Assembly (NCBI GenBank): GCA_004375715.1
Contig: SOKP01000253.1
Location: 16,573 to 80,572 of the forward strand
Source of the DNA: Promethearchaeota archaeon
Lineage (GTDB): Archaea; Asgardarchaeota; Lokiarchaeia; Sigyniarchaeales; SOKP01
Direction: 5' to 3'
Length of the DNA: 64,000 nt
Part shown: positions 8,761 to 22,821 of the stretch, in pieces
Layout: the number at the start of each line of letters is the position of its first letter
Numbering within the stretch: the stretch's first letter is position 1
Notes under the pieces: model-generated
Database searches by the model: none
Told to the model about the DNA's origin: nothing
What the model saw: only the letters and a program-made list of their open reading frames with translations
Translations under genes and position numbers: made by a program

Positions 8761-10152
8761 TTATTCAATGTTTTTTAATTTATCCAAGCGCAACTTATGG
8801 AGAACCTTAAGTTGCTCTTGCTGCTCAGTAAATTTTTTGTAATTTAGCGGGTAAAATTTAAAAACTATTAAACCAAGTAGTAGCCCAAAAGCAGGTACTA
8901 AAGACATCGAAATTCTTAACCCAATTAAAGCCGATGGTGCTTGAGTTTCTAAATTAGGATCAAATCCGGTTAATAACTGAATGGTTATTAAAGCAAAAGC
9001 AGATAAAATCATTGATAGTCTAGCAATAAATGCTCCAATCCCACCAAATGTTGCTTCTCGTCTTTTTCCCGTTTTAATTTCGTCGTAATCAATTGCAGCG
9101 GATATCACAGGTTCGGTCATTAAAACTCCCGTTACCCCAAGCCCTGGGAAAATTCCAATAATAGTTAGGCTAATAAAATCTTCCGCTAAAAAGAAAGGTA
9201 TTATTCCTACACAGAATATAATCATCCCTAGGGATAAGCCAAATTTCGGCCCCTTTTTAGCGTAAACTTGCCACCATAATGGAAACGAAATTATTATTCC
9301 TAGTGCTACTCCAATCATTGCGAATCCTTCCATTCCTTCTTCTACTTTAAGTATGAATTTGGCATAAAGAGGAAGAATCATCATCATAAAACCGAAACAA
9401 AAGTCAATTAATGCATAAGTTACTGAAGCAATTATAAATGGTTTATTTAAGAACGATTCTTTAAAAGCTTTAATTATCGGGAGTGGCTCATCTATTTGAT
9501 ATTCTACTCTTTCTTTTGTTCCAAGAAGAGAAAGATACATAGTTATTGGTATTGTAATGCCCATTATTAATCCTGCTAATGCCCAACTACCAAAAGCAGC
9601 AGCAATCATAGATGGGATCATTACACCAATCATTGAGGAAAAAAAAGCTATGGAGTCTTTTATAGCAACTACAGAAGCTCTCTCCTTTTCCTCTTCGTAC
9701 ATTTCCGTATATAAAGCGTTCCATGCAGTCATAACGATCGTAAATCCTGTATCGAATAGAAAAAGCATTATTAATCCGTATACGAATACTCTATTTTTAT
9801 CGCTAAATGGAACCCACCATAAAGCAATAAAACCTATCGTCATTGGGATTGTACCGTAAATAATCCAAGGCACACGACGTCCTTTCTTAAGCTTTATTTT
9901 GTCCATATAATAACCAATGAGCGGATCGTTTATTGCATTCCAGATTCCATATAACATGAAGAGAATTCCAAATTCAATAAGAGATAATCCCGCGTATAGT
10001 GTGTAAAAAATTAGCAACCAGGATCCAACCATACTGTAGGGGAGTGCAGAAGGTACCGCTCCTAAAGAATATAGAAAATGTCCTCGTCGAGAGTGTGGGT
10101 CGATATTTAACGAATGATCCTTAGATTTTTTCATATTTAAAACCTTTTCCAT
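8761..10152 (-). CDS. GPH family cation symporter (MFS superfamily)
   Basis: Polytopic 463-aa ORF with INDPLIGYYMDKIKLKKGRRVPW, the same GPH signature as 2365..3819. Confidence 0.8.
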   Translation of the reverse strand: MEKVLNMKKSKDHSLNIDPHSRRGHFLYSLGAVPSALPYSMVGSWLLIFYTLYAGLSLIEFGILFMLYGIWNAINDPLIGYYMDKIKLKKGRRVPWIIYGTIPMTIGFIALWWVPFSDKNRVFVYGLIMLFLFDTGFTIVMTAWNALYTEMYEEEKERASVVAIKDSIAFFSSMIGVMIPSMIAAAFGSWALAGLIMGITIPITMYLSLLGTKERVEYQIDEPLPIIKAFKESFLNKPFIIASVTYALIDFCFGFMMMILPLYAKFILKVEEGMEGFAMIGVALGIIISFPLWWQVYAKKGPKFGLSLGMIIFCVGIIPFFLAEDFISLTIIGIFPGLGVTGVLMTEPVISAAIDYDEIKTGKRREATFGGIGAFIARLSMILSAFALITIQLLTGFDPNLETQAPSALIGLRISMSLVPAFGLLLGLIVFKFYPLNYKKFTEQQEQLKVLHKLRLDKLKNIE

Positions 10153-10238
10153 GCTAAAATATACTTTTTATTTTAAAAATGATTTTTTATATTTTAAAGT
10201 TTATGTCTTATTGTGTTGAAAGCTAAAAAGATTTAAAC

Positions 10239-11681
10239 TTATATATTTCTCTTTCTTTTCCAATCAGCATTGTCGCTCGTCCTTAAGTACCACCTAAGTA
10301 ATTGCTCTTTGAGATCAGTTTTTACCTTATCGTAAGCATAGATATCGATAAGGTTGCTCGCTTCGTTAGGATCGTACATAAGATCGTACAACTCTTCTTT
10401 TCCCTGATCACGAATAATGAGTTTCCATAATTTAGTCCTTATCATTGCAGAACGTGCAACAGTAGAGCTATCTTCTTTAGGTATATTCGTTTTATCGTAA
10501 TAAATTCCGATTCCTGGTAGTTCTGGACTCGTGATAACGGGTTCAAAACATTGTGGTTCGCGAGGATTATAACCTCCTTCTGCAAAGACCGCATTCCTGA
10601 TTTTTGTTAAATGACCTTGGAGAAAAGGGATTAAATTCTTACCAAAATGAGTATATTGAGTGTTAATTTGAGCGATGTGTAAGATCGTTGGAAAAATATC
10701 AATAGACTGGACGAGTTGGTCGTAAATCACATTTTTTCGTTCAATGCTTGGAATTTTTAGAATTAAGGGGATGTTAAGTAAACAATCTTGGAATGCGGTC
10801 GGCCATTTCTCTGTTAAACCATAATCCCCAAGAAAATCTCCATGGTCTGCAAAAAAGGCTATTACACTATTTTTGTAAGCCCCGTTTTCTTTTAATTGGT
10901 TTATTATCAAACCAAATTGGTGATCTACTCGAGAAACCATTCCATAATAAGTAGCAATAATTTCTTTAAAATCATCTTTATCCAAATTGTTCAAACCGTA
11001 CTTTTCATGAAATAAGCGCATAAATTCTGGCTTGTCATCCAATTTGGGCGGAATTGGTGCAGGTACTAAGTTTCGATCGTACATAGAAAAGTATGGTTCC
11101 TCAACCGTGTAAGGCGGATGAGGAAAGCTCAAGGCTATGTATAGGCAAAAGGGGTTCTTAAGATCTGAATTTAAATAGTCAACTGCCTTTTGAATAACAT
11201 GATAATCACTATCTTTTGATTCCTCTAGTGTTCTCTCACCATAATAAAAAGATTTTCTCAAAGGATGCTCTAAGGGATAGGGATTAGTTTTCCAAGCACC
11301 CATTTTCGTTCTTAACCTTTTCGTTACGCTTTGTTTAATAGCGTCTTTTCCAAAAAGATCGTTTCTTCCTACCCAAACGACCTCATATCCTTTGTCTTTT
11401 AAAAGTTTAAACAAATTATCTTCATGGGGTTGTAGCAATTGATAAAGACTTCTATGATTGTTGGAATGAACATATTGACCCGTAAACGTACAACATCTCG
11501 ATGGCCCACAGACAGGATTAACAGTGAAACAGTTCCTAAAAGCAACACCGTCTTTTGCAAATTGGTCAATATTTGGTGTTTCTATTATAGGGTTTATCTT
11601 ACCATTAAGAGAAACGCAGTCTCCTCTAAGTTCGTCAGCCACAAAAAATATGATATTTGGAAGAGATTTCTCGTATTCCAT
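10239..11681 (-). CDS. Type I sulfatase (formylglycine-dependent, Cys-type), apparently cytoplasmic
   Basis: PNIIFFVADELRGD metal-site N-terminus and the C-x-P-x-R core VCGPSRCCTFTGQY. 480 aa. It starts MEYEKSLPNII with no signal peptide or TM segment. Confidence 0.85.
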   Translation of the reverse strand: MEYEKSLPNIIFFVADELRGDCVSLNGKINPIIETPNIDQFAKDGVAFRNCFTVNPVCGPSRCCTFTGQYVHSNNHRSLYQLLQPHEDNLFKLLKDKGYEVVWVGRNDLFGKDAIKQSVTKRLRTKMGAWKTNPYPLEHPLRKSFYYGERTLEESKDSDYHVIQKAVDYLNSDLKNPFCLYIALSFPHPPYTVEEPYFSMYDRNLVPAPIPPKLDDKPEFMRLFHEKYGLNNLDKDDFKEIIATYYGMVSRVDHQFGLIINQLKENGAYKNSVIAFFADHGDFLGDYGLTEKWPTAFQDCLLNIPLILKIPSIERKNVIYDQLVQSIDIFPTILHIAQINTQYTHFGKNLIPFLQGHLTKIRNAVFAEGGYNPREPQCFEPVITSPELPGIGIYYDKTNIPKEDSSTVARSAMIRTKLWKLIIRDQGKEELYDLMYDPNEASNLIDIYAYDKVKTDLKEQLLRWYLRTSDNADWKRKRNI

Positions 11682-11813
11682 AATTAACTCAATATCATTA
11701 AGAGTTTAAAAATTTAATAATTAAGAAATGAATAACTATAGTAAAAGCAGTACTTTTACACGATCATAGTGGTTAAAAATCAAATAGAATAGCTATTAAA
11801 TGGTGTTAAAATC

Positions 11814-12974
11814 ATGAATTCGAGAGAGAGGGTAAATGTTACATTAAACCATAAAGAACCGGACAAAGTTCCGATTGATTTAGGGGGTAATCAATCAAGT
11901 ATCCACATCATAGCTTACAAAAAATTGCTTGAATACCTCGAAATTAAAGACAATAACATACAGTACGCAGATTTCGTTCAACAGATTGTGGCACCTTGCG
12001 AAGAAATTTTAGAAAGATTCCAAATTGATGTAAGATACATCCAACCTTTAGGAGGAATGATTAATGTTCAAGACATGAAACCAGAAGTCGAACAAAAATA
12101 TTTAGGCCAATACGACCAATTTGGCGTGTTTTGGGGAAATGACGCAAAAAAAAAGATAACTGATATTTTATATTACGATCCTGTTATTCATCCTTTTGCA
12201 GATTTTGACTCGGTAAGTGATGTAAAGAATTACGATTGGCCAGATGGGCTAGATAAAACTCCTTTTATTGGCTTGAAAGATTACGCAAGAAAATTACGCG
12301 AAAAAACAGATTTTGCCTTATCAACGCCTCCAGTGGGTTGCGTTTACGAATATTGCACTTTCTTATTCGGATTCACCAAAACACTAAGATATTTGAAGAC
12401 TAAACCAGAAATCATAGTTTCAGCTATGGAAGAGCTTTTAAAATATTGGACTAATTATGTTTCAACATTTCTAGACGAAGTAGGGAGCTATTTAGACGTA
12501 GTATGTATTAATGGTGACCTCGCAGAGCAAGCAGGACCCATTATGAGCGTTAAACTTTACGAGAACATGATTAAACCATTAGAACGGAAACTATCAGACA
12601 GGATCCATGAACTAGTAGATGCTAAAATAAACTACCATTCGTGTGGTGCAATCTCACAATTTATCCCTCACTTCGCAGAAATAGGATATGATATCGTTAA
12701 TCCAGTTCAAATCAGCGCTTATGATATGGAACCATGTTCTCTGAAAAAAAGATTTGGGAGTACAATGTCGTTCTGGGGAGGCTTATGTAACTCACAAAAA
12801 ACTTTACCCTTTGGAACTCCTGAACAAGTTAGAGAAGAAGTCAGAAGAAACTTCGAATGTTTGAAACCTGGAGGAGGTTTTGTAGCGTCTAACATTCATA
12901 ACATCACAGCTGAAGTCCCACCTCAAAATATAGTAGCAATGTTTGATGCAGCTAATGAGTTCGGAAATTATTAA
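11814..12974 (+). CDS. URO-D / MtaA-CmuA family protein with an H-x-C motif
   Basis: N-terminus MNSRERVNVTLNHKEPDKVPID. INYHSCGAISQF (H-x-C-G) plus a distal Cys (WGGLCNSQ) resemble the zinc site of corrinoid methyltransferases of this family. Confidence 0.7.
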   Translation: MNSRERVNVTLNHKEPDKVPIDLGGNQSSIHIIAYKKLLEYLEIKDNNIQYADFVQQIVAPCEEILERFQIDVRYIQPLGGMINVQDMKPEVEQKYLGQYDQFGVFWGNDAKKKITDILYYDPVIHPFADFDSVSDVKNYDWPDGLDKTPFIGLKDYARKLREKTDFALSTPPVGCVYEYCTFLFGFTKTLRYLKTKPEIIVSAMEELLKYWTNYVSTFLDEVGSYLDVVCINGDLAEQAGPIMSVKLYENMIKPLERKLSDRIHELVDAKINYHSCGAISQFIPHFAEIGYDIVNPVQISAYDMEPCSLKKRFGSTMSFWGGLCNSQKTLPFGTPEQVREEVRRNFECLKPGGGFVASNIHNITAEVPPQNIVAMFDAANEFGNY

Positions 12975-13018
12975 TAGAAGCTTTTTAAGCTAATAATTAA
13001 TTTCAATACAATAGAGTT

Positions 13019-13876
13019 ATGCAGTATAAAATTTTTGATGCACACCTTCATACATATGGCACTTTTCTCGCAAAAGATGACGATCTCATCTCATATTTGG
13101 ATAGACATAACGTCGAAAAGGCAATAATAACTACCGTCAATAGAGCAGCGAGTTCTAAAATTTACGCTAATGATGATAATGGAACCGGAGAAGAGGTGTC
13201 CGATGAAAATCGTGTTAAAAAAGCTTTTGAAAATTTGAGAAAAATGATGCCTAAAGATCAATTGGATCACCAAGATGTTATTAATATCTCAAATTTAGCT
13301 CCTGAAAGATTTGTTAAGTTCTTTTGGTTCAATCCTAAAATTGATCGGGATGATGTAGATAAAAATTATAGGATATTAGAAAACCATTTTAAGATGGGAT
13401 TTCATGGAGTAAAAATCCATTCCGGAATTCATCTAATTAAAATTCCGAGAGATATTATGTCTTTAGCTTCTTTCATGCAAGAATATAACAAGAACATTCC
13501 TTTATATATTCACTTCACACCGAAATTTTCAGTTTTTGGAGGGATTTCCTCGAAAGATCTTGCAAAATTAGCTCAAAGTTTTCCAAACTTAACTATCATT
13601 TTGGGGCATGCAGGATTAGCCATGGAGTTTGCTATCGATTTTGGATTGAGCTTAAAACAATACAAAAACATCTACTTTGAAACCTCATGTTCAATACCAT
13701 ACGCAATATTATCCTTAGTTAAGATGATTGGTCACAAAAGGCTTCTATTTGGCTCAGATGCGCCCGTCACGAATCCTCTTCAGCTTGAAATAGAAAAAAT
13801 AATGTGTTTGCCAATTAGGAGTGACCAAAAGCAAGATATTTTCTATAACAATACTAACAAGTTATTTTTAAATTAA
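13019..13876 (+). CDS. Amidohydrolase-2-like TIM-barrel metal-dependent hydrolase/decarboxylase
   Basis: IFDAHLHTYG (H-x-H), HGVKIHSG, ILGHAG and LFGSDAP are spaced as in the amidohydrolase superfamily. It starts 44 nt after the URO-D-like gene. Confidence 0.6.
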   Translation: MQYKIFDAHLHTYGTFLAKDDDLISYLDRHNVEKAIITTVNRAASSKIYANDDNGTGEEVSDENRVKKAFENLRKMMPKDQLDHQDVINISNLAPERFVKFFWFNPKIDRDDVDKNYRILENHFKMGFHGVKIHSGIHLIKIPRDIMSLASFMQEYNKNIPLYIHFTPKFSVFGGISSKDLAKLAQSFPNLTIILGHAGLAMEFAIDFGLSLKQYKNIYFETSCSIPYAILSLVKMIGHKRLLFGSDAPVTNPLQLEIEKIMCLPIRSDQKQDIFYNNTNKLFLN

Positions 13877-14088: not shown

Positions 14089-14643
14089 GTGTATACTGTG
14101 AAATATTTAGGGGATGATATCAACAACACAGATAATCCTAATTGGGATGTCATTGAAGTTTCAAAAGTTAACGACAAAATAATTATGAAGCTTTTAAATT
14201 ATCTGAAATATGATGTATCGGAAAAATTCTTTATTTCTTTTGAAAGTCTTTTGAAGTTGGGGAATAGAGTCCCAGAAGCAACGATCAGAAATATTGTTGA
14301 AGAATTGGACCACTCTCACGATTTTAAAAAAGAATTATTTCAGTTTATTCTCAATTTTATAAACAACGAAGCTGTGGAATATCATTTACTACCACAAATA
14401 TATAGTCCTGATTTTATCGTTAGAGCTCGAGCTATAATGAAAATTAAAGAGAATGACGATGTAAGATATATGAAATTCCTACTTCCTTTATTAGACGACC
14501 CAGATGATTCGGTAAGATGGAGTGTCATTAAATTTTTATCAAAACATGTCAAAAATCCCATAATTTATTCTGAATTGAAGAATCATTTAAATAAAGAGTT
14601 AAATCCGATTATATACGATAATCTAAAAGAAATTTTTGAGTAA
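14089..14643 (+). CDS. HEAT-repeat protein
   Basis: 184 aa, helical, with PBS-lyase-type HEAT units (LLPLLDDPDDSVRWSVIKFLSKH; SPDFIVRARAIMKI). GTG start, so the exact 5' end is uncertain. Confidence 0.45.
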   Translation: MYTVKYLGDDINNTDNPNWDVIEVSKVNDKIIMKLLNYLKYDVSEKFFISFESLLKLGNRVPEATIRNIVEELDHSHDFKKELFQFILNFINNEAVEYHLLPQIYSPDFIVRARAIMKIKENDDVRYMKFLLPLLDDPDDSVRWSVIKFLSKHVKNPIIYSELKNHLNKELNPIIYDNLKEIFE

Positions 14644-14852
14644 GATTAAAGCTTTTATAAATGATTCTTACTTCTTCCCTTTAATTTGTTCTTTTATATC
14701 TCATTTTAAACAAAAAGTAAAGAATTAAAAACACCATTTTTAATTATATATATAAATAGGTTTAACGACCCAAAATATGAAATTTTTAATAAAATCTAAC
14801 CATCACTTAAATTTAATTAATGTGGTTGATGGCATAAAAAAAGTTTACAAAG

Positions 14853-15392
14853 GTGTTTAAGATATCGTCATATGACTATACATTTAAAATTTTACTGCTC
14901 GGAGACGCATCTGTTGGTAAGACTTCTTTCACTAAACGATATTGTTACAATGTCTTTAATCCCAGCGAGCGATTAACTATTGGAGTTGATTTTCATGTTA
15001 AAACGATTGAGTTACAGGGAAAAAAGATAAAACTCCAAATCTGGGATGTTGGAGGCGAGGAACGTTTCAGGTTTTTATTACCAACATATTGTTTAGGTGC
15101 GAACGCTGCATTTCTACTATACGATGTGACACGGACTCAAACTCTTGACAATATCAGTGAATGGACAAATATTGTTCACCAGAAAGGCGGACTTATACCA
15201 ATTATGCTTGTTGGGTCTAAAATCGATCTTACCGATACTCCACGTGAAGTTTCGCGAGAATACGGGATACAAATTGCCGAAAAGAATAATATGGCATCAT
15301 TTGGTGAAATATCCAGCAAAACTGGTCAAAATGTAAATAAAACATTTGAGGTTTTAACAGAGCTGACATTAGAAAAAATTGTAAATAGGTAA
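14853..15392 (+). CDS. Rab-like small GTPase (Ras superfamily, eukaryotic-signature type)
   Basis: YDYTFKILLLGDASVGKT (G1), TIGVDF (switch I / RabF1), KLQIWDVGGEERFRF (G3 / RabF2-3), LLYDVT (RabF5), VGSKIDL (G4 variant), EISSKTG (G5). 179 aa with no C-terminal Cys. GTG start. Confidence 0.9.
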   Translation: MFKISSYDYTFKILLLGDASVGKTSFTKRYCYNVFNPSERLTIGVDFHVKTIELQGKKIKLQIWDVGGEERFRFLLPTYCLGANAAFLLYDVTRTQTLDNISEWTNIVHQKGGLIPIMLVGSKIDLTDTPREVSREYGIQIAEKNNMASFGEISSKTGQNVNKTFEVLTELTLEKIVNR

Positions 15393-15404
15393 ATAGGTGA
15401 TTGC

Positions 15405-16367
15405 ATGTCTGACCGTGAATTTTTAGCTCTCAGTTCTCTATTCGATGCAATAGGAATTATTGAAAAAGGCATTGAGAAAATATACCACTATTTACTTACA
15501 CATAAGAGAATTGACAACTTGACTGAAGTCAGCACGCAATTCAATTTGACCTTAAAAAGAGGATATAAAATTTGTGCGGTTTTGAACGATTTGGGATTAG
15601 TTCAAATATACGATCGCCCCATGAAAATTCACTTAACAACTCCACCTATATCCATATGGCAAACTATTCTTAACGAAAGAATTGAAGAATTGTCTCAACT
15701 GTTCCAAGAAAAAAAAGAGGAGGCAGAAAATGCGCTATCAGATTTTATTCAAAATTATAATTTGAGTGAACAGATAACTCAAGAGTTCGTAGAGTTCGTT
15801 AATTATAACCTAAAAAATATTGGAGAGACTTATCACTCATTTTTAGCCGAAAAAGAATGTAAAATTGCCATAGGAATCAGGTATGAAAACCAATTTAGTT
15901 CAGTTATTAAAAAATACGGGATTTCTAGTATTCCTGAAGATTTAAGTGAATCTATGCAATCGGGTATAACGAAAATTAAAGAAAACCTAATCAATATTGA
16001 TATCCAAGTAATCTTTAGCACGGAAGTAATAAAGGAATTATTAACTAGTGAAGAATTTCAACTGGTTTCCAATTATCTCAAACAATACGATTTATTTTTT
16101 AAAAATATCTCTGTTCGTGTTACAGAAGAGGATTTCAGTAATTTTAATTTAACGGATAGTGAATTGGTTCAACCAAGTTTTGATCCGACTAATAAATTGA
16201 TAGGAGCTTACATATCACGAAATACTAATATTTATCAAATTTTCAATGACAAATTTAGCGAATTGTACGAAAAAGGTATTCCATTAACACAATTTCTAAA
16301 AGAACAGAGCGATCTTAAAGAAGAATCTTATTCTAAAACGCAATTGTTTGGTTTGTGTTTGCTATAA
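15405..16367 (+). CDS. TrmB-like winged-helix protein (putative transcription regulator)
   Basis: It starts 12 nt after the GTPase stop, with GGTGA 4 nt upstream of the ATG. The N-terminus IGIIEKGIEKIYHYLLTHKRIDNLTEVSTQFNLTLKRGYKICAVLNDLGLVQIY follows the TrmB wHTH pattern. The C-terminal ~200 aa have an alternating alpha/beta pattern. The call is by pattern only. Confidence 0.5.
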   Translation: MSDREFLALSSLFDAIGIIEKGIEKIYHYLLTHKRIDNLTEVSTQFNLTLKRGYKICAVLNDLGLVQIYDRPMKIHLTTPPISIWQTILNERIEELSQLFQEKKEEAENALSDFIQNYNLSEQITQEFVEFVNYNLKNIGETYHSFLAEKECKIAIGIRYENQFSSVIKKYGISSIPEDLSESMQSGITKIKENLINIDIQVIFSTEVIKELLTSEEFQLVSNYLKQYDLFFKNISVRVTEEDFSNFNLTDSELVQPSFDPTNKLIGAYISRNTNIYQIFNDKFSELYEKGIPLTQFLKEQSDLKEESYSKTQLFGLCLL

Positions 16368-17088: not shown

Positions 17089-18075
17089 ATGGAAAAGTTC
17101 TTATCGCCAGAAACCATATTCTCTAACTTGAAAAATAAAGAAATTGATCGAAATATCGCTTATGATCAATTAATTTCTTTAATTGAAGGGAGCAATAATC
17201 CAAAAATTCGCTCTGAATCAATTTCCATTTTGAATCAACTAAAAATTCCCGATCCAAAGCTTTTCAAAATCATAGAAAGCTCAGTTTTATCAGATGAAAG
17301 TCCATATGTTAGAAGGTCTGCCGTAAACCTAATTGGTCATCAATTTTTAAAAGAAGGTTTAGACACGCTAACATGGGTGATCCAACATGAAAAATCACCA
17401 CTTGTAGTAAAAACAATTTTTGATCTGAACTTAGAACCTACTGACACGCGATTTAAATCACTGAATAAAGAGTTAACTGACTATTTAGCGAAAATTGCGT
17501 TAGAGTTAGGTATTATATCAAACGAGGCAAAGTTTATTTTAGATTTAGAAGCTAACTTCGCCCAAAACGAGGAGAATTCCGTCCTAGAGTTAAAATCATA
17601 TCAATTTTATGAAAAACTTAAAGATGTTAAACTTGGAGAATTTTGGTTAACAATAAAAGATAAACACATTGAGTCCTTAAGCTTTAATTATTTTAATTGG
17701 AGATACATGAAACGAAATCCTGGTCTATTTAATTCAATATCGAATTTACAGGATCCAATTGTATACTTAAATTTATTAGGAAAAATCCATTCAACTCATA
17801 ATAATAATTTCAGAATTCCTGAATCAATTTCACTACTTACAAAACTCAGAAAATTGAATCTAAGCAAAAATAACATTATTAAATTACCAAAATCTATGTT
17901 TTTGCTTACTAGCCTTAAATATTTAGATTTAAGTAATAACATGCTGGATGAAATACCCAAAGAAATTACGAATTTAAAATCTTTAACTACTTTAAGAATT
18001 CAAAATAATCAAATCAGTAAAATTCCTACAACCGTAAAAACCTATTTAGATAAGCTTAGCAATTATAAGATTTAG
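17089..18075 (+). CDS. HEAT-repeat plus leucine-rich-repeat (LRR) protein
   Basis: N-terminal HEAT units (NNPKIRSESISILNQL; LSDESPYVRRSAVNLIGHQF). C-terminal 23-residue LRRs (LTKLRKLNLSKNNIIKLPKSMFL / LTSLKYLDLSNNMLDEIPKEITN / LKSLTTLRIQNNQISKIPTTV). Confidence 0.75.
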   Translation: MEKFLSPETIFSNLKNKEIDRNIAYDQLISLIEGSNNPKIRSESISILNQLKIPDPKLFKIIESSVLSDESPYVRRSAVNLIGHQFLKEGLDTLTWVIQHEKSPLVVKTIFDLNLEPTDTRFKSLNKELTDYLAKIALELGIISNEAKFILDLEANFAQNEENSVLELKSYQFYEKLKDVKLGEFWLTIKDKHIESLSFNYFNWRYMKRNPGLFNSISNLQDPIVYLNLLGKIHSTHNNNFRIPESISLLTKLRKLNLSKNNIIKLPKSMFLLTSLKYLDLSNNMLDEIPKEITNLKSLTTLRIQNNQISKIPTTVKTYLDKLSNYKI

Positions 18076-18166: not shown

Positions 18167-19879
18167 TTGGAAGATAAAAAGAATGTTATAAGTGGTGGCG
18201 ATGTTCTTATCAAATCCTTACTTAAAGAAGATGTCAAATACTTATTTGGGATCATTGGTGGTCAGTTTTTAACTATGTTTGATGCAGTATACAAGTGGGG
18301 GCGCGAAAAGGGCATTAACACAATTATGTTTCGACACGAACAAGCAGCAGCACACGCAGCTGACGCTTGGGCAAGAGTAACTAATAAGCCGGGTATTTGT
18401 TTCGGAACTGTTGGTCCTGGTGCGACACAACTCGTTCCAGGTGTTGGTGCAGCATGGAGTGATAATATACCCCTGATAGTTATAGTACCTCAAGTGAATA
18501 GTAAATTTGCTGATTCTTTCACTCTGCAGGGAAATCTTGATCAAGTTACTATGTTTAAACCAATTACTAAGTATCAGAAATCTATTCGCACGATAGAAGA
18601 AATTCCAGATGCGGTCCAAAAAGTTTTTCGAGAGGCTACCAGTGGGCGACCAAGACCTGTGTTGTTAGAGATTTACGAAGATGCATTTCTCAGTCAGAAA
18701 GAAGAGAGTGAAATTCTCATAATGTCTCCCGACCAGTATCGTTGTATTGAGAAACCAGCTGTGAGTAATGAATTAATCCAAAAATCATTAGATTTGTTGT
18801 TAAAAGCTGAAAAGCCGTTAATCGTCTCTGGAGGTGGAGTTTCGAGGTCTGAAGGATGGGAAGAACTTCAAGAATTTGCTGAATATTTAAAAATTCCCGT
18901 TATGACAAGTATTATGGGTGTTGGAACCATCTCAAGTAAGTCAGAAAGTTTTATCGGAACAACAATAAATGGTCCGGGTTTAAAGGCAGGTCCCGAAGCA
19001 GATGTAGTTCTTGCTCTCGGATGTAAATTTTCGTATATCATGGGTCATGGACAAGAACCTTTTTGGAAAAATTCTCAAAAAATGATACAGGTAGATATTG
19101 ATCCGGGAATAATTGGAAGAGCCAAACCTATTACTTTAGGTGTGATAAGCGATTGCAGACAATTTTTAAAACAAATTCTCGAAATGGCTAAAAAGACTCA
19201 AAAAGTTGAAAAAAGCCCTTGGTTAGATGAACTCGTAGCTTTGAGAAAAACACAGATGGCTGGAATGATGAAAAAAGCAACAAAAGATAAAATCCCAATT
19301 TTGCCTCAAAGATTAGTCAAGGATGTCTTAGAATTCATGGATGAGGATGCGATATTCATTAACGACGGCGGGGACATAGCTTGTTATTCTATAGAGCAAA
19401 TAGATTATTATAAACCAAGACCACCGCTCTCATTCTTGCAGGCTGTTGGGATGGGACACCTGGGGACTTCAGTAGGGTACGGAATTGGAGCTAAGCTAGC
19501 AAAACCGGATAAACAAGTAATTTCAATATCCGGTGATGGCAGTTTTATGATGAATATTCAAGATTTAGAAACTGCTGTAAGATTAGGTCTAAGCAATCTA
19601 ATCTTTGTGATAGCAAATAATAGTGCTTGGGGAATGCTCAAATCAGGTCAAAAATTATTCGTAGATAAGCATTATATCGATGTAGAATTGCCCAACTTTG
19701 ATTTTGCCAAATGTGCTGAAGGATTTGGGTGTTATGGTGAGGTAGTGACAGATCCAAATGATATTAAACCGGCACTTGAAAGAGCTAAAAATTCCGGAAA
19801 ACCAGCAGTGATCGATGTTAAAACAGCTTGGACAATCCCAGATGCAACGAAACTTTTAGGAAGCATGGGAATACTTTAA
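18167..19879 (+). CDS. Thiamine-diphosphate-dependent enzyme (acetolactate synthase large subunit / 2-hydroxyacyl-CoA lyase superfamily)
   Basis: FRHEQAAAHAADAWARVTNKPGICFGTVGPGATQL in the N-terminal Pyr domain, and the TPP motif GDGSFMMNIQDLETAVRLGLSNLIFVIANNSAWG. TTG start. The subfamily cannot be resolved by eye. Confidence 0.85.
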   Translation: MEDKKNVISGGDVLIKSLLKEDVKYLFGIIGGQFLTMFDAVYKWGREKGINTIMFRHEQAAAHAADAWARVTNKPGICFGTVGPGATQLVPGVGAAWSDNIPLIVIVPQVNSKFADSFTLQGNLDQVTMFKPITKYQKSIRTIEEIPDAVQKVFREATSGRPRPVLLEIYEDAFLSQKEESEILIMSPDQYRCIEKPAVSNELIQKSLDLLLKAEKPLIVSGGGVSRSEGWEELQEFAEYLKIPVMTSIMGVGTISSKSESFIGTTINGPGLKAGPEADVVLALGCKFSYIMGHGQEPFWKNSQKMIQVDIDPGIIGRAKPITLGVISDCRQFLKQILEMAKKTQKVEKSPWLDELVALRKTQMAGMMKKATKDKIPILPQRLVKDVLEFMDEDAIFINDGGDIACYSIEQIDYYKPRPPLSFLQAVGMGHLGTSVGYGIGAKLAKPDKQVISISGDGSFMMNIQDLETAVRLGLSNLIFVIANNSAWGMLKSGQKLFVDKHYIDVELPNFDFAKCAEGFGCYGEVVTDPNDIKPALERAKNSGKPAVIDVKTAWTIPDATKLLGSMGIL

Positions 19880-19894
19880 TTATGGTGTATTATC

Positions 19895-20911
19895 GTGAAA
19901 GTTGCTATATTTGAGGGTAAAGAACAAATAGTAATTAAAGACGGTGTTAAACCTGAAATAAAATCGGATGAAGTATTAATTCAGGTTAAAAAAGTTGGAA
20001 TATGTGGATCAGATGTTGGATCCTATGAATCTGGAGGTCCATACTTACCTGGAAAAATAATTGGTCATGAATTTTCGGGAGAATTAGTTGAGATCGGTGA
20101 ATATGTCAAAAAATTAAAGGAAGGAATGAGGGTTACTGTCAATCCTCAAATTCCCTGCCATGAATGTTATTATTGCCTCCACGCTCAAGAGAACATGTGT
20201 AAACTCCAGAACTATTCATTGGGTACTACTGAAGATGGTGCTATGAGAGAATTTCTTAATGTTAAGGCAGAAAGAGTTCATGTTTTACCAGATAATGTAA
20301 CTTTTGAGGAAGGTGCTACAGTTGAACCACTCTCAGTAGCTGTTTATGCTGTAGAACAATCAGGATTTCAATTAGGTCAAAACGCAGCTATTATAGGCGC
20401 TGGACCTATAGGGTTGATGATAATTCAGGTATTAAGAAGCGCAGGTGCGAATAAAATTTATGTAATTGAGCCCGTAGAATCAAAACAAAAAATTGCTTTG
20501 GAAGTCGGGGCTGATAAAGTATTTTTGCCAAAAGCTTGGAATAAGATTGTTAGACTTACAGGTAAGTTGGGCCCAGATCATGTTTATGAATGTGTAGGTT
20601 TATCATCTACTTTCACTACATCATTACAATTAATAAAAAAAGGTGGAAATATTACCTTAATTGGCATGCATGCGAAAACACTTGAAATCAACAATATATT
20701 GCTAATGACAACTAATAACATTTCAGTAAGGGGAGTTTATGGATATAATCATGATATCTTCAAAACGGCCATAAATCTATATGCTCAGAAAAAGATAACT
20801 GTTGATCCGCTGATAACCAAGAGAATAAGATTGGAACAAGTTCCTGAGATGTTCAAAGTTTTAGGAAATCCTCCTCATGACGAATTAAAAGTAATTGTCG
20901 ATTTTGAATAA
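19895..20911 (+). CDS. Zinc-dependent alcohol/polyol dehydrogenase (MDR family)
   Basis: GICGSDV and GHEFSG catalytic-zinc ligands, the structural-zinc cluster CHECYYCLHAQENMC, and Rossmann IIGAGPIGL. It starts 15 nt after the TPP enzyme gene. Confidence 0.85.
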   Translation: MKVAIFEGKEQIVIKDGVKPEIKSDEVLIQVKKVGICGSDVGSYESGGPYLPGKIIGHEFSGELVEIGEYVKKLKEGMRVTVNPQIPCHECYYCLHAQENMCKLQNYSLGTTEDGAMREFLNVKAERVHVLPDNVTFEEGATVEPLSVAVYAVEQSGFQLGQNAAIIGAGPIGLMIIQVLRSAGANKIYVIEPVESKQKIALEVGADKVFLPKAWNKIVRLTGKLGPDHVYECVGLSSTFTTSLQLIKKGGNITLIGMHAKTLEINNILLMTTNNISVRGVYGYNHDIFKTAINLYAQKKITVDPLITKRIRLEQVPEMFKVLGNPPHDELKVIVDFE

Positions 20912-21057
20912 GTAGTAATTACAATTTTTTTTCTTTCTATAAATAGTATAACTTTATTGGGTTATAACCTAATGTCCATTCTAAACAAATTTAATTTCAT
21001 GAATTTGGTAAATATTTATAAATCCATGTAACAATAAATAAGATATTCACCAATTTT

Positions 21058-22821
21058 GTGAATAAAAATTACGAGGTTAATCTAATGGTAGATAAAACGA
21101 GTCCATATGATGCGAAAATATGGACAAAATCCTATGATGAACATGTTAAACCCAATTTAGAATATCCTAAAGGGAGCCTTGGTAAAATTTTTGATGATGC
21201 TATGAAAAAATATCCTGAAAGAATTGCTTGCTACTTTATGAAGCGGGATATGCCTTTCAAAGAATTGAGGGAATATACACACCGATTTGCGACCTTTTTA
21301 CAGCAAAATGGTTTAAAAAAAGGAGATCGCGTTGCTATAAATCTCGCTAACTGTCCTCAATATTTGGCTGCACACTTTGGAACAATTTTAGCGGGCGGAG
21401 TAGCATCGGGGTGTTCACCGCTTTTAAGCCCAACTGAAATTGCTTACCAAATAAACGATAGTGAAGCTAAATTTTTTGTTACTTTGGATAAAGTATATGA
21501 GAAAGTATTAATGAAAGTAATAGATAAGTTGCCAAATCTTAAATGCGTAATTACGACTAACATTTCTGATTACATGGGGCTTTCGAAACCTTTAGTATTT
21601 CTTGGTAAACTACTAGGTAAAATACCAAAAGGAAAAGTTGAACCTTATTCCGGAAAATTAATTATAGATTTCAAGGATGTGATGGAAACATCCATCGATT
21701 TACAGGATGTAGATATAGATGTGAAAAATGATCTTGCCCTACTTCAATATACCGGCGGAACTACAGGGTTACCTAAAGGTACAGAACTTACTCATGCTAA
21801 CGTAATTACTAACATAGTTCAAGTAGCAACCTGGTTAGATAGAAGGGAAGCAAAGGAAGGCGAAATCAATTTATCTGCTTTTCCACTCTTTCATTTAGCT
21901 GGTTTAGCTATGAGTATGATCACTTTATATACTTCTGGAGGTCAAATTCTAATCGCAGACCCTAGAGATACAGATCATATTATTGAAGAAATGATCGAAA
22001 AAAACCCAAAAATAATTGTGAACGTCCCAACCTTATTTTTATCAATGATGAACAACCCAAAATTAAAGGACGTACCAAAATCTACATTCAATAATATAGA
22101 TATGTATGTTTCTGGGGCGGCGCCTTTTCCCGCAGAAGCAATTAGGGATTTCGAAGAATCTATGCTTGGTACTAATAAGGTTTTAGAAGTTTATGGAATG
22201 ACTGAGACAAGTCCAATTCTCACTATGAATCCTTTTAAAGGGAAGAAGAAAGTCGGAACTGTAGGTTTACCCGTACCTGACACTGAGCTGAGACTTGTAG
22301 ATATTGAAACTGGAAAACAGGTAGAACTTGGACAACCAGGAGAAATTATTTGTAAAGGTCCTCAAGTTACAAGAGGTTACTTTAACAAGCCAGATGCAAA
22401 CGCAAAGACTATTATCGATGGATGGCTTCATACTGGTGATGTTGGTGTTATGGATGAGGATGGCTTCATAACGATTGTGGATCGAACTAAAGATATGTTA
22501 ATCGTAAGTGGGTATAAGGTTTATAGCGTTCATGTAGAAGATGTAATGACAAAACATCCAGATATAGAATTAGTAGCAATCATAGGTTTAAAAGATCCAG
22601 ACCGCCCTGGGAGCGAAATTGTTAAAGCAGTCGTTCAACTTAAGGAAGGAGTTCAACCAACTGAAAAAGTGCAAGAAAACTTAAAAAATTATACTGCTGA
22701 ACATCTCTCGAAATATGAAAATCCAAAACAATGGGAATTTAGAGAATCGCTTCCCCTAACAGCAGTAGGAAAGGTATTAAAAAGGGCTCTCCGAGAAGAA
22801 GAGATAAAAAGGAATAAATAA
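21058..22821 (+). CDS. Acyl-CoA ligase (AMP-forming, long/medium-chain type)
   Basis: AMP-binding motif LQYTGGTTGLPKG, plus GYFNKPDA...WLHTGDVG and IVDRTKDMLIVSGYKV. The start is possibly the ATG at 21085. Confidence 0.85.
   Translation: MNKNYEVNLMVDKTSPYDAKIWTKSYDEHVKPNLEYPKGSLGKIFDDAMKKYPERIACYFMKRDMPFKELREYTHRFATFLQQNGLKKGDRVAINLANCPQYLAAHFGTILAGGVASGCSPLLSPTEIAYQINDSEAKFFVTLDKVYEKVLMKVIDKLPNLKCVITTNISDYMGLSKPLVFLGKLLGKIPKGKVEPYSGKLIIDFKDVMETSIDLQDVDIDVKNDLALLQYTGGTTGLPKGTELTHANVITNIVQVATWLDRREAKEGEINLSAFPLFHLAGLAMSMITLYTSGGQILIADPRDTDHIIEEMIEKNPKIIVNVPTLFLSMMNNPKLKDVPKSTFNNIDMYVSGAAPFPAEAIRDFEESMLGTNKVLEVYGMTETSPILTMNPFKGKKKVGTVGLPVPDTELRLVDIETGKQVELGQPGEIICKGPQVTRGYFNKPDANAKTIIDGWLHTGDVGVMDEDGFITIVDRTKDMLIVSGYKVYSVHVEDVMTKHPDIELVAIIGLKDPDRPGSEIVKAVVQLKEGVQPTEKVQENLKNYTAEHLSKYENPKQWEFRESLPLTAVGKVLKRALREEEIKRNK

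Follow-up and report, generated by a model that had tools for sequence, protein, structure and literature searches.

The DNA analyzed here, a stretch of 64,000 nucleotides referred to below as the window (G+C content 32.8%), comes from contig SOKP01000253.1 of a Promethearchaeota archaeon and contains only one small-GTPase gene, which is followed on the same strand and in the same reading frame by the gene of a 320-amino-acid (320-aa) protein with a predicted fold like that of the archaeal protein TrmBL2. The mechanical open reading frame (ORF) of the GTPase runs from 14853 to 15392 and ends with TAA (15390-15392), while the ORF of its neighbor starts with an ATG at 15405 and extends to 16367; its product is 100% identical to the NCBI protein E3J90_11315, also assigned to "Promethearchaeota archaeon". 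A previous sequence-only reading of this DNA had placed the GTPase stop codon, a 12-nt spacer, a GGTGA motif and the downstream ATG, and all these positions hold on re-reading the sequence; the N-terminal peptide that it quoted corresponds to residues 16-69 of the 320-aa ORF. The two genes, the junction between them and the parts of the second protein are the following:

14862..15392, + strand: Rab-like small GTPase gene, probable start ATA at 14862 (Pfam Ras, E 9.4e-44)
15393..15404, + strand: 12-nt junction ATAGGTGATTGC, with a Shine-Dalgarno (SD)-like GGTGAT at 15396-15401
15405..16367, + strand: whole coding sequence of the 320-aa TrmBL2-like protein (model pLDDT 90.4; top PDB match TrmBL2)
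15471..15635, + strand: winged helix-turn-helix (wHTH), residues 23-77 (predicted secondary structure, conserved basic residues)
15645..15755, + strand: long helix, residues 81-117 (model), at the position of the TrmB dimerization coiled coil
15789..16274, + strand: phospholipase D (PLD)-like alpha/beta domain, residues 129-290 (Foldseek matches)
16335..16364, + strand: hydrophobic C-terminal helix ending in LCLL, residues 311-320 (helix 311-319 in the model)

The association of these two genes is strict in both directions. Searching from the TrmB-like side, with one genome per species, we recovered 80 Asgard loci with 51-95% identity, 78 of them with upstream DNA, and in all 78 an orthologous GTPase (E<=1e-81) is located directly upstream, on the same strand and a few bases before the ATG. 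A metagenome scan from the GTPase side gave 80 loci, 4 of which left no room for a downstream gene, and the TrmB-like gene lies directly downstream of the GTPase in 73 of the other 76. The 3 exceptions are paralogous GTPases, and in 2 of these the P-loop is damaged and the protein continues into an unrelated Zn-ribbon domain. The pair is also found in 5 out of 5 members whose TrmB-like protein has only ~30% identity to that of the window, where all other neighbors are different; these are Promethearchaeum syntrophicum MK-D1 (TrmB-like gene DSAG12_02406), Lokiarchaeum ossiferum (NEF87_004816), each with the GTPase gene directly upstream, and 3 metagenome contigs (L172-L174). Insertions and rearrangements occur on either side of the pair and none between its two genes. 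The sequence-only reading had proposed counting the co-occurrence of the pair across genomes, and the outcome of this count is that the pairing occurs in many other genomes and that the adjacency is far beyond chance. The two outermost members of the family, from Helarchaeota (~19% identity), have no GTPase nearby, so the link with the GTPase is a derived trait of the clade studied here.

The junction between the genes is conserved as well. In the window, the 12-nt spacer ATAGGTGATTGC contains GGTGA (15396-15400), then the 4 nt TTGC and then the ATG at 15405, and a comparison of 111 distinct junction sequences showed that AGGTGAT-N3-ATG is kept in 110 of them, with the SD-like AGGTGAT placed 9-10 nt before the TrmB-like ATG. 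The modal distance from stop to ATG is 4 nt (61/86 loci and 53/73 loci), and in the loci with this gap the GTPase stop codon TGA is itself part of the AGGTGAT motif. The window presents a variation of this arrangement, with the GTPase stop shifted 6 nt upstream and the AGGTGAT motif retained. The 4-nt modal gap and the stop codon usually embedded in a conserved AGGTGAT strongly support co-transcription and coupled translation of the pair, both of which the earlier reading had anticipated, and, judging from its conservation, the junction sequence itself is under selection.

The beginning of the GTPase gene required a correction. The GTG at 14853, which opens the mechanical ORF, falls within an SD-like AAGGTG. 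In a comparison of 68 distinct orthologous loci, the start lies 3 codons ahead of the Tyr conserved in YDYTFK. This position is occupied by ATG in 36 loci, ATT in 14, ATA in 4 (the window included, at 14862-14864), TTG in 3, GTG in 2 and ATC in 1, and AAAGGTG is found 6-8 nt upstream of it. Fifteen loci contain neither ATG nor GTG nor TTG from the upstream stop to the conserved GTPase N-terminus. The true start in the window is thus probably the near-cognate ATA at 14862-14864 and not the GTG at 14853, and one clade appears to use a near-cognate start codon for this gene. Gene callers shorten the GTPase genes that have such starts, to 166 aa in locus L001 and 104 aa in locus L005.

The assignment of the upstream protein as a small GTPase, already made from the sequence, was confirmed by Pfam, which places it in the Ras family (PF00071, E 9.4e-44, 149 bits versus a gathering score of 21.6), with secondary matches to Roc and Arf, and by TIGR00231 (86 bits, cut-off 42.5). 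Its nearest relatives of solved structure are Rab10, Rab8 and Sec4 (E ~1e-37). The nucleotide-binding motifs are intact and conserved across orthologues, including G1 (GDASVGKT), the switch I Thr (in RLTIGVDF), G3 (DVGG) and G5 (SSK/SAK), while G4 is SKID in the window and NKxD, SKxD or AKxD among orthologues, with the Lys and the Asp kept throughout. Instead of the catalytic Gln, the residue that follows DxxG is Glu (WDxGGE) in 77 out of 77 distinct orthologues and in the distant partners. Neither the window GTPase, which ends in ...LEKIVNR, nor any orthologue has a C-terminal Cys motif for prenylation, so that the protein deviates from the Rab pattern in this respect as well as in its G4 and in the Glu after DxxG. 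The most conspicuous feature is the switch II/alpha2 segment KLQIWDxGGExRFRFLLPTYCLG, with the core GGE-RFRFLLPTYCLG, which is invariant save at 2 positions among the 77 orthologues and the distant GTPases that partner members of the TrmB-like family, and which is kept although overall GTPase identity drops to ~50%. As far as sequences can tell, this segment marks a separate GTPase orthogroup, and its invariance at such identity, which is what would be expected of a conserved partner surface, makes it look like one.

Two of the paralogues recovered in the metagenome scan (L166:528-1910 and L170:3944-5392) have a ~80% identical G domain, with the P-loop Gly replaced by Glu (GDDSVEKT), fused to a C-terminal domain of ~280 aa that ends in a CxxC...CxxC zinc ribbon and has no informative Pfam match. 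More GTPase genes are found nearby.

On its own, the second protein has no significant match in Pfam, NCBIfam or the PDB sequences. Searching among 5.8 billion sequences, we found 519 homologues at E<=1e-3, and the named sources of these are all Asgard except one metagenome-assembled genome labelled as a Nanopelagicaceae bacterium. This contig (L010, DATKTW010000132.1, deposited as "Candidatus Nanopelagicaceae bacterium") carries the pair at 93% identity and probably belongs to an Asgard genome, having been mis-binned. The family forms 55 clusters at 50% identity among 1.84 billion representative proteins, and ordinary TrmB proteins are absent from these clusters, so that, by these searches, it is a small and essentially Asgard-only family.

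Comparison of the family with profile models gave several matches near the thresholds. The Pfam TrmB model PF01978 has sub-threshold matches in 15 of the 27 members searched (best 22.7 bits versus a cut-off of 25.6), none of which reaches the gathering score, and does not match the window protein at E<=1, while PF11495, the TrmB effector domain, matched neither the window protein nor any member searched. The E2F/DP winged-helix model PF02319 gave weak matches in 13 of the 27 members (best 23.3 bits versus 25.7; best E 5.2e-5), and a profile of the family searched against the PDB found human E2F8 (4yo2) with E 0.009. Residues 50-77 of the window protein (15552-15635), LKRGYKICAVLNDLGLVQIYDRPMKI, resemble the E2F/DP winged helix (RRxYD...NVLEG.GLI), the recognition-helix motif being KRxYK in this family versus RRxYD in E2F/DP. 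Such a resemblance may reflect what winged helices have in common generally, or it may offer a lead on where E2F/DP came from. DUF6879 (PF21806) matches 13 of the 27 members at E<=1, the window protein not among them, and the distant members P0200 and P0172 score 29.1 and 30.5 bits (threshold 23.9) over the final 60-75 model positions only; the matched region in the distant members, residues 223-298, is the late part of the PLD-like domain. Additionally, the family motif LiQPSFDPxNkLxGxfiSRxxEI aligned in the PDB profile search with the Legionella effector lpg1496 (5bty/5btz), LIKPSKYPDNKLGCYISKNKEI, with E 0.1.

The resemblance to TrmB proteins emerged from structure prediction. A first AlphaFold model, obtained from 14 close sequences, had a pLDDT (predicted local distance difference test) of 69 and was replaced by a final one based on a 48-sequence alignment that includes members at ~30% identity, with a pLDDT of 90.4. 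This model predicts a wHTH (residues 23-77; helices 23-33, 39-45 and 50-62, strands 66-69 and 74-77), a 37-residue helix (81-117), an alpha/beta domain (129-290) and C-terminal helices. In Foldseek searches against the PDB, TrmBL2 chains occupy ranks 1-8 (E 8.6e-13 to 4e-10, ~300 aligned columns), with proteins of PLD fold among the other matches (Zucchini 4gem, E 2.1e-5; NucT 6ehi, 5.2e-5; Nuc 1byr, 1.9e-4; PLD range to 7e-4), as well as the TrmB sugar-binding domain 2f5t (E 7.8e-4). The TrmB-like wHTH proposed from the sequence is therefore upheld at the level of fold, with TrmBL2 as the top match, and not as Pfam membership, where even the best family member remains below the cut-off.

The predicted wHTH keeps basic residues of a kind common in DNA binders. 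Its recognition helix would be LKRGYKICAVLNDL and its wing YDRPMK, and the residues K51, R52, Y54, K55, R71, P72, M73 and K74 are invariant or nearly so, the outgroup included. In the recognition helix the invariant Y54 is followed by Lys; the equivalence of this Tyr to Y50 of TrmB is by position only. The full-length Foldseek matches pair helix 81-117 with TrmBL2, and the long helix after the wHTH is the dimerization coiled coil in TrmB (PMC4158304), which suggests that the 320-aa protein would dimerize through these residues.

The motif that the family conserves best, FSNFxLTDxELIQPSFDPTNKLIGAYISRN (residues 244-273, nt 16134-16223), lies in the alpha/beta domain. The catalytic PLD motif HxK(x)4D(x)6GSxN was not found in this domain, which has no invariant His across the family: in the conserved motif FSNFNLTDSELVQPSFDP the HxK positions hold neither His nor Lys, being F244 and N246 when counted from D251, a mapping that is positional and not derived from structural superposition. 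We read the domain, from its sequence, as a catalytically dead module, and an active PLD nuclease was rejected due to the absence of the HxK motif. After residue 273 the model shows helices only, and it lacks the second subdomain of TrmB, the one that binds sugar, as described for TrmBL2 (PMC4158304). Consequently, the mixed alpha/beta effector domain that the sequence-only reading had seen does exist as a predicted PLD-like fold, whereas its ligand-sensing character is not borne out: with the sugar-binding subdomain missing, no match to PF11495 and the PLD-like domain followed by helices only, a ligand-sensing role is an assumption. The hydrophobic final helix is retained across the whole family, and in the close clade L317, L319 and L320 of the terminal LCLL are invariant, with C318 present in at least 90% of the sequences. 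The LCLL is not a CaaX box, since its Cys is at position -3.

Among characterized proteins, the closest parallel is TrmBL2 itself (TK0471/PF0496), a chromatin protein and global repressor of Thermococcales. The full-length match covers the winged helix, the long helix and the PLD-like C-terminal domain without a sugar-binding subdomain (PMC4158304), and the 320-aa protein has an invariant recognition-helix Tyr, Y54, which corresponds by position to Y50 of TrmB and TrmBL2. The two proteins differ in that their identity is ~15%, in that the 320-aa protein is ~60 residues longer with extra C-terminal helices, and in that the residue after the Tyr is Lys here and Asp in TrmBL2. Furthermore, the protein described here is from Asgard archaea and TrmBL2 from Euryarchaeota, and no GTPase partner of TrmBL2 is reported in the review PMC4158304. 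TrmB and TrmBL1 (PF01978 plus PF11495) share the N-terminal wHTH and long-helix layout, and the PLD-like fold is also that of the first subdomain in their effector domain (2f5t, E 7.8e-4), but the second subdomain, which holds most of the sugar-binding residues (PMC4158304), has no counterpart in the 320-aa protein, for which there is no evidence of a sugar ligand.

The region upstream of the GTPase gene was examined with an alignment of 49 sequences, in which the following blocks are conserved while the flanks diverge:

14711-14731, + strand: intergenic block AAAAAGTAAAGAATTAAAAA, conserved in most of the 49 aligned upstream regions
14736-14759, + strand: AT-rich, TATA-like block ATTTTTAATTATATATATAAATAG, conserved in the alignment
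14762-14779, + strand: block TTAACGACCCAAAATATG, conserved in the alignment
14824-14842, + strand: element GGTTGATGG-CATAAAAAAA, similar to a B recognition element (BRE) plus TATA box, from upstream-region conservation
14849-14855, + strand: SD-like AAAGGTG, conserved across upstream regions

The AAAAAGTAAAGAATTAAAAA element (17-20 nt) is located ~130 nt upstream of the GTPase start, and the TTAAGACCCAAAAT block, a motif of TTGAGGTAT(A/T)AA type and a GGTTGAGG-TATAAA motif ~35 nt before the GTPase start are likewise found across the upstream regions. The 17-mer AAGTAAAGAATTAAAAA occurs a single time in the window when 0-2 mismatches are allowed. The blocks at 14711-14779 are candidates for a promoter or an operator, and the element at 14824-14842 would be a promoter, judging by the archaeal BRE/TATA consensus. 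The inverted repeats found upstream of the GTPase gene are short and AT-rich, and there was no convincing palindrome or RNA hairpin among them. A CCATCA...TGATGG repeat of the window was dropped as evidence, as it is not consistently kept in relatives.

Taking these data together, we tentatively propose an explanation that we find plausible while still a little short of probable: the two genes would constitute an Asgard-specific module in which the GTPase and the TrmBL2-like protein, produced together, work as a complex that links nucleotide state to a DNA-binding protein. In such a complex, the switch regions of the GTPase would make the physical contact, and their most likely docking site on the TrmB-like protein would be its PLD-like domain, at the conserved pseudo-active-site face. 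The signal would presumably run from the GTPase to the DNA, with the GTP or GDP state altering how the TrmB-like protein binds or coats DNA and, in this way, changing local chromatin or transcription. Control could also run the other way, as the TrmB-like protein may assist GTP hydrolysis or nucleotide exchange. This proposal also offers an answer to what acts on the C-terminal domain, which must be something other than sugar given that the sugar-binding subdomain is absent.

Several points weigh against this proposal. DNA binding by the TrmB-like protein is suggested by its predicted fold and conserved basic residues alone, its membership of TrmB at the sequence level stays below threshold, and operon partners need not touch each other. 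No fusion protein of the GTPase and the TrmB-like protein exists among the 1.84 billion representative proteins. Finally, a mirror-tree comparison of the two proteins gave r 0.86 and a partial r of 0.50, no higher than the control pairs of neighboring genes (0.16-0.66), so the test is uninformative and shows only shared phylogeny. This last result would also fit an inherited gene order without functional meaning, as would the wider neighborhood (Amidohydro_2, HEAT, leucine-rich-repeat (LRR), thiamine pyrophosphate (TPP) enzyme and alcohol dehydrogenase (ADH) genes), which is also syntenic among closer genomes. We give that explanation scarcely any credence, however, because rearrangements flank the pair and never split it, the pair persists in wholly different contexts at ~30% identity and the junction sequence appears to be under selection.

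More serious, though in our view rather unlikely, is that the TrmB-like protein would be an ordinary, small-molecule-responsive transcription factor of its own operon, and perhaps of the nearby carbohydrate genes, with the GTPase as a regulated gene that it never contacts. Regulators are commonly encoded beside their targets and a locus-specific conserved element does lie upstream of the GTPase gene, but the 17-mer of this element is not repeated before other genes of the window, and a simple cis-regulator would not usually lie always downstream of, and coupled to, one GTPase orthogroup, as is the case in >150 loci. Sugar genes are the typical targets of TrmB regulators (PMC4158304), some members of the family are annotated by JGI as "sugar-specific transcriptional regulator TrmB", and the surroundings are sugar-related in the window and in many related loci (MFS_2 transporter and sulfatase; GH5 or GH172 in relatives), yet the sugar genes are not conserved neighbors, as it is the GTPase that stays in MK-D1, L. 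ossiferum and L172-L174, and the subdomain with which a sugar would be bound is absent. It is also conceivable, although we judge it improbable, that the TrmB-like protein does not bind DNA and serves as a GTPase-activating protein (GAP), a guanine nucleotide exchange factor (GEF) or a scaffold of the GTPase, its winged helix binding protein and its C-terminal helix mediating assembly or membrane contact. The invariant Glu in place of the catalytic Gln could mean that the GTPase needs a partner for hydrolysis, for which Rap and RapGAP provide an analogy; against this, the TrmB-like protein matched none of the known folds of GAPs or GEFs. In ESCRT-II and cullins, winged helices mediate contacts between proteins, but the one considered here retains, in its recognition helix and wing, the basic residues that DNA binders typically have, the Helarchaeota outgroup, which lacks the GTPase, conserves these residues equally well, and the closest structure is that of a bona fide DNA-binding protein. 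The conserved hydrophobic C-terminus with its LCLL would suit such a role, as would the situation of the MK-D1 GTPase genes, which as a rule share no operon with roadblock, longin or TRAPPC3 genes, making it hard to match individual GTPases with their GAPs or GEFs (Tran et al. 2024).

A complex of the GTPase with the TrmBL2-like protein, the explanation that we prefer, would have parallels in logic elsewhere. Rag GTPases bind TFEB and Ran works with the chromatin-bound RCC1, so that in both cases, as proposed here, the state of a GTPase is coupled to a DNA-associated partner, although the partners are non-homologous and the likeness is one of analogy. In bacteria, the group 3 MglA proteins of beta/gamma-proteobacteria are GTPases encoded in a conserved neighborhood with a predicted winged-helix protein, for which a function in transcription regulation was proposed (Wuichet & Sogaard-Andersen 2014, PMC4316618). 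In that case the GTPase belongs to the MglA family, the partner combines a receiver-like domain with a wHTH, and the connection is also a prediction only (PMC4316618); in addition, the roadblock GAPs of MglB type present in group 3 MglA systems are absent here. The ArvA-ArvB-ArvC operon of Euryarchaeota, which drives extracellular vesicle formation (PMC10927574), the actinobacterial conservon (CvnA-D) and MglA/MglB also have small GTPases in conserved operons with dedicated partners, but in the first two systems these partners are DUF2073 and Zn-ribbon proteins, and a histidine kinase and roadblock proteins, respectively, none of them a TrmB-like DNA-binding protein. Literature searches with the locus tags, with DUF6879 and with Asgard, GTPase and TrmB in combination found no description of the pair, and neither the GTPase nor the TrmB protein listed in the MK-D1 proteomics paper is the one of the pair. 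The sequence-only reading, which knew of no described pairing of this kind, thus has to be qualified, a bacterial precedent having been predicted in 2014 (PMC4316618).

Asgard archaea are the closest known prokaryotic relatives of eukaryotes and possess many eukaryote-like small GTPases whose partners are almost unknown because of the general lack of informative operons that Tran et al. 2024 note for MK-D1, and among these GTPases an orthogroup tied in >150 loci to one partner with the predicted fold of a chromatin protein is an exception. If the two proteins interact, a prokaryotic Ras-superfamily switch would be wired directly to DNA or chromatin, and the pair would provide a concrete entry point to Asgard GTPase regulation. 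As it is present in both cultured species examined, MK-D1 and L. ossiferum, the hypothesis can be tested with recombinant proteins.

Two neighboring genes accompany the pair more loosely:

14089..14643, + strand: gene of a 184-aa HEAT-repeat protein (Pfam HEAT_2, E 1.3e-7), a looser third member of the neighborhood
17089..18075, + strand: gene of a 328-aa protein with HEAT and leucine-rich repeats (LRR_8, 6e-12; HEAT_2, 1.4e-5), a possible accessory with a weak link

Of the 52 species loci in which the DNA upstream extends for 5.5 kb or more, 51 have a homologue of the HEAT gene upstream, on the same strand, at a distance of <=1.5 kb in 31 loci and further away in 20. This homologue is either adjacent or behind an insert of 2-3 kb. 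HEAT_2 genes also lie 1.8-2.6 kb upstream in MK-D1 and L. ossiferum, and the genes inserted between HEAT and GTPase in other clades have no Pfam matches. Homologues of the LRR gene are located downstream in 30 of 56 species loci, and in MK-D1 an LRR gene also adjoins the pair. Slightly under half of the loci have a gene for a small membrane protein downstream. The recurrence of HEAT genes (51/52 loci plus MK-D1 and L. ossiferum) and of LRR genes (about half) would be compatible with a primitive, chromatin-anchored GTPase cycle of Ran-like logic, in which a DNA-bound TrmBL2-like protein would be the exchange factor or effector, an analogue of RCC1 in role and not in ancestry, with the HEAT protein karyopherin-like and the LRR protein RanGAP-like. 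We regard this analogy as speculative and very improbable.

The remaining neighbors in the window are metabolic and include genes for an MFS_2 transporter, a sulfatase, a URO-D-like protein, an Amidohydro_2 protein, a TPP enzyme, a Zn-ADH and an AMP-binding enzyme, and the synteny of these metabolic flanks is limited to closer genomes. The flanks at 8761-13876 and 18167-22821 resemble a set for the utilization of carbohydrates and organic acids, to which related loci add a GH5 cellulase, GH172 and HpaB.

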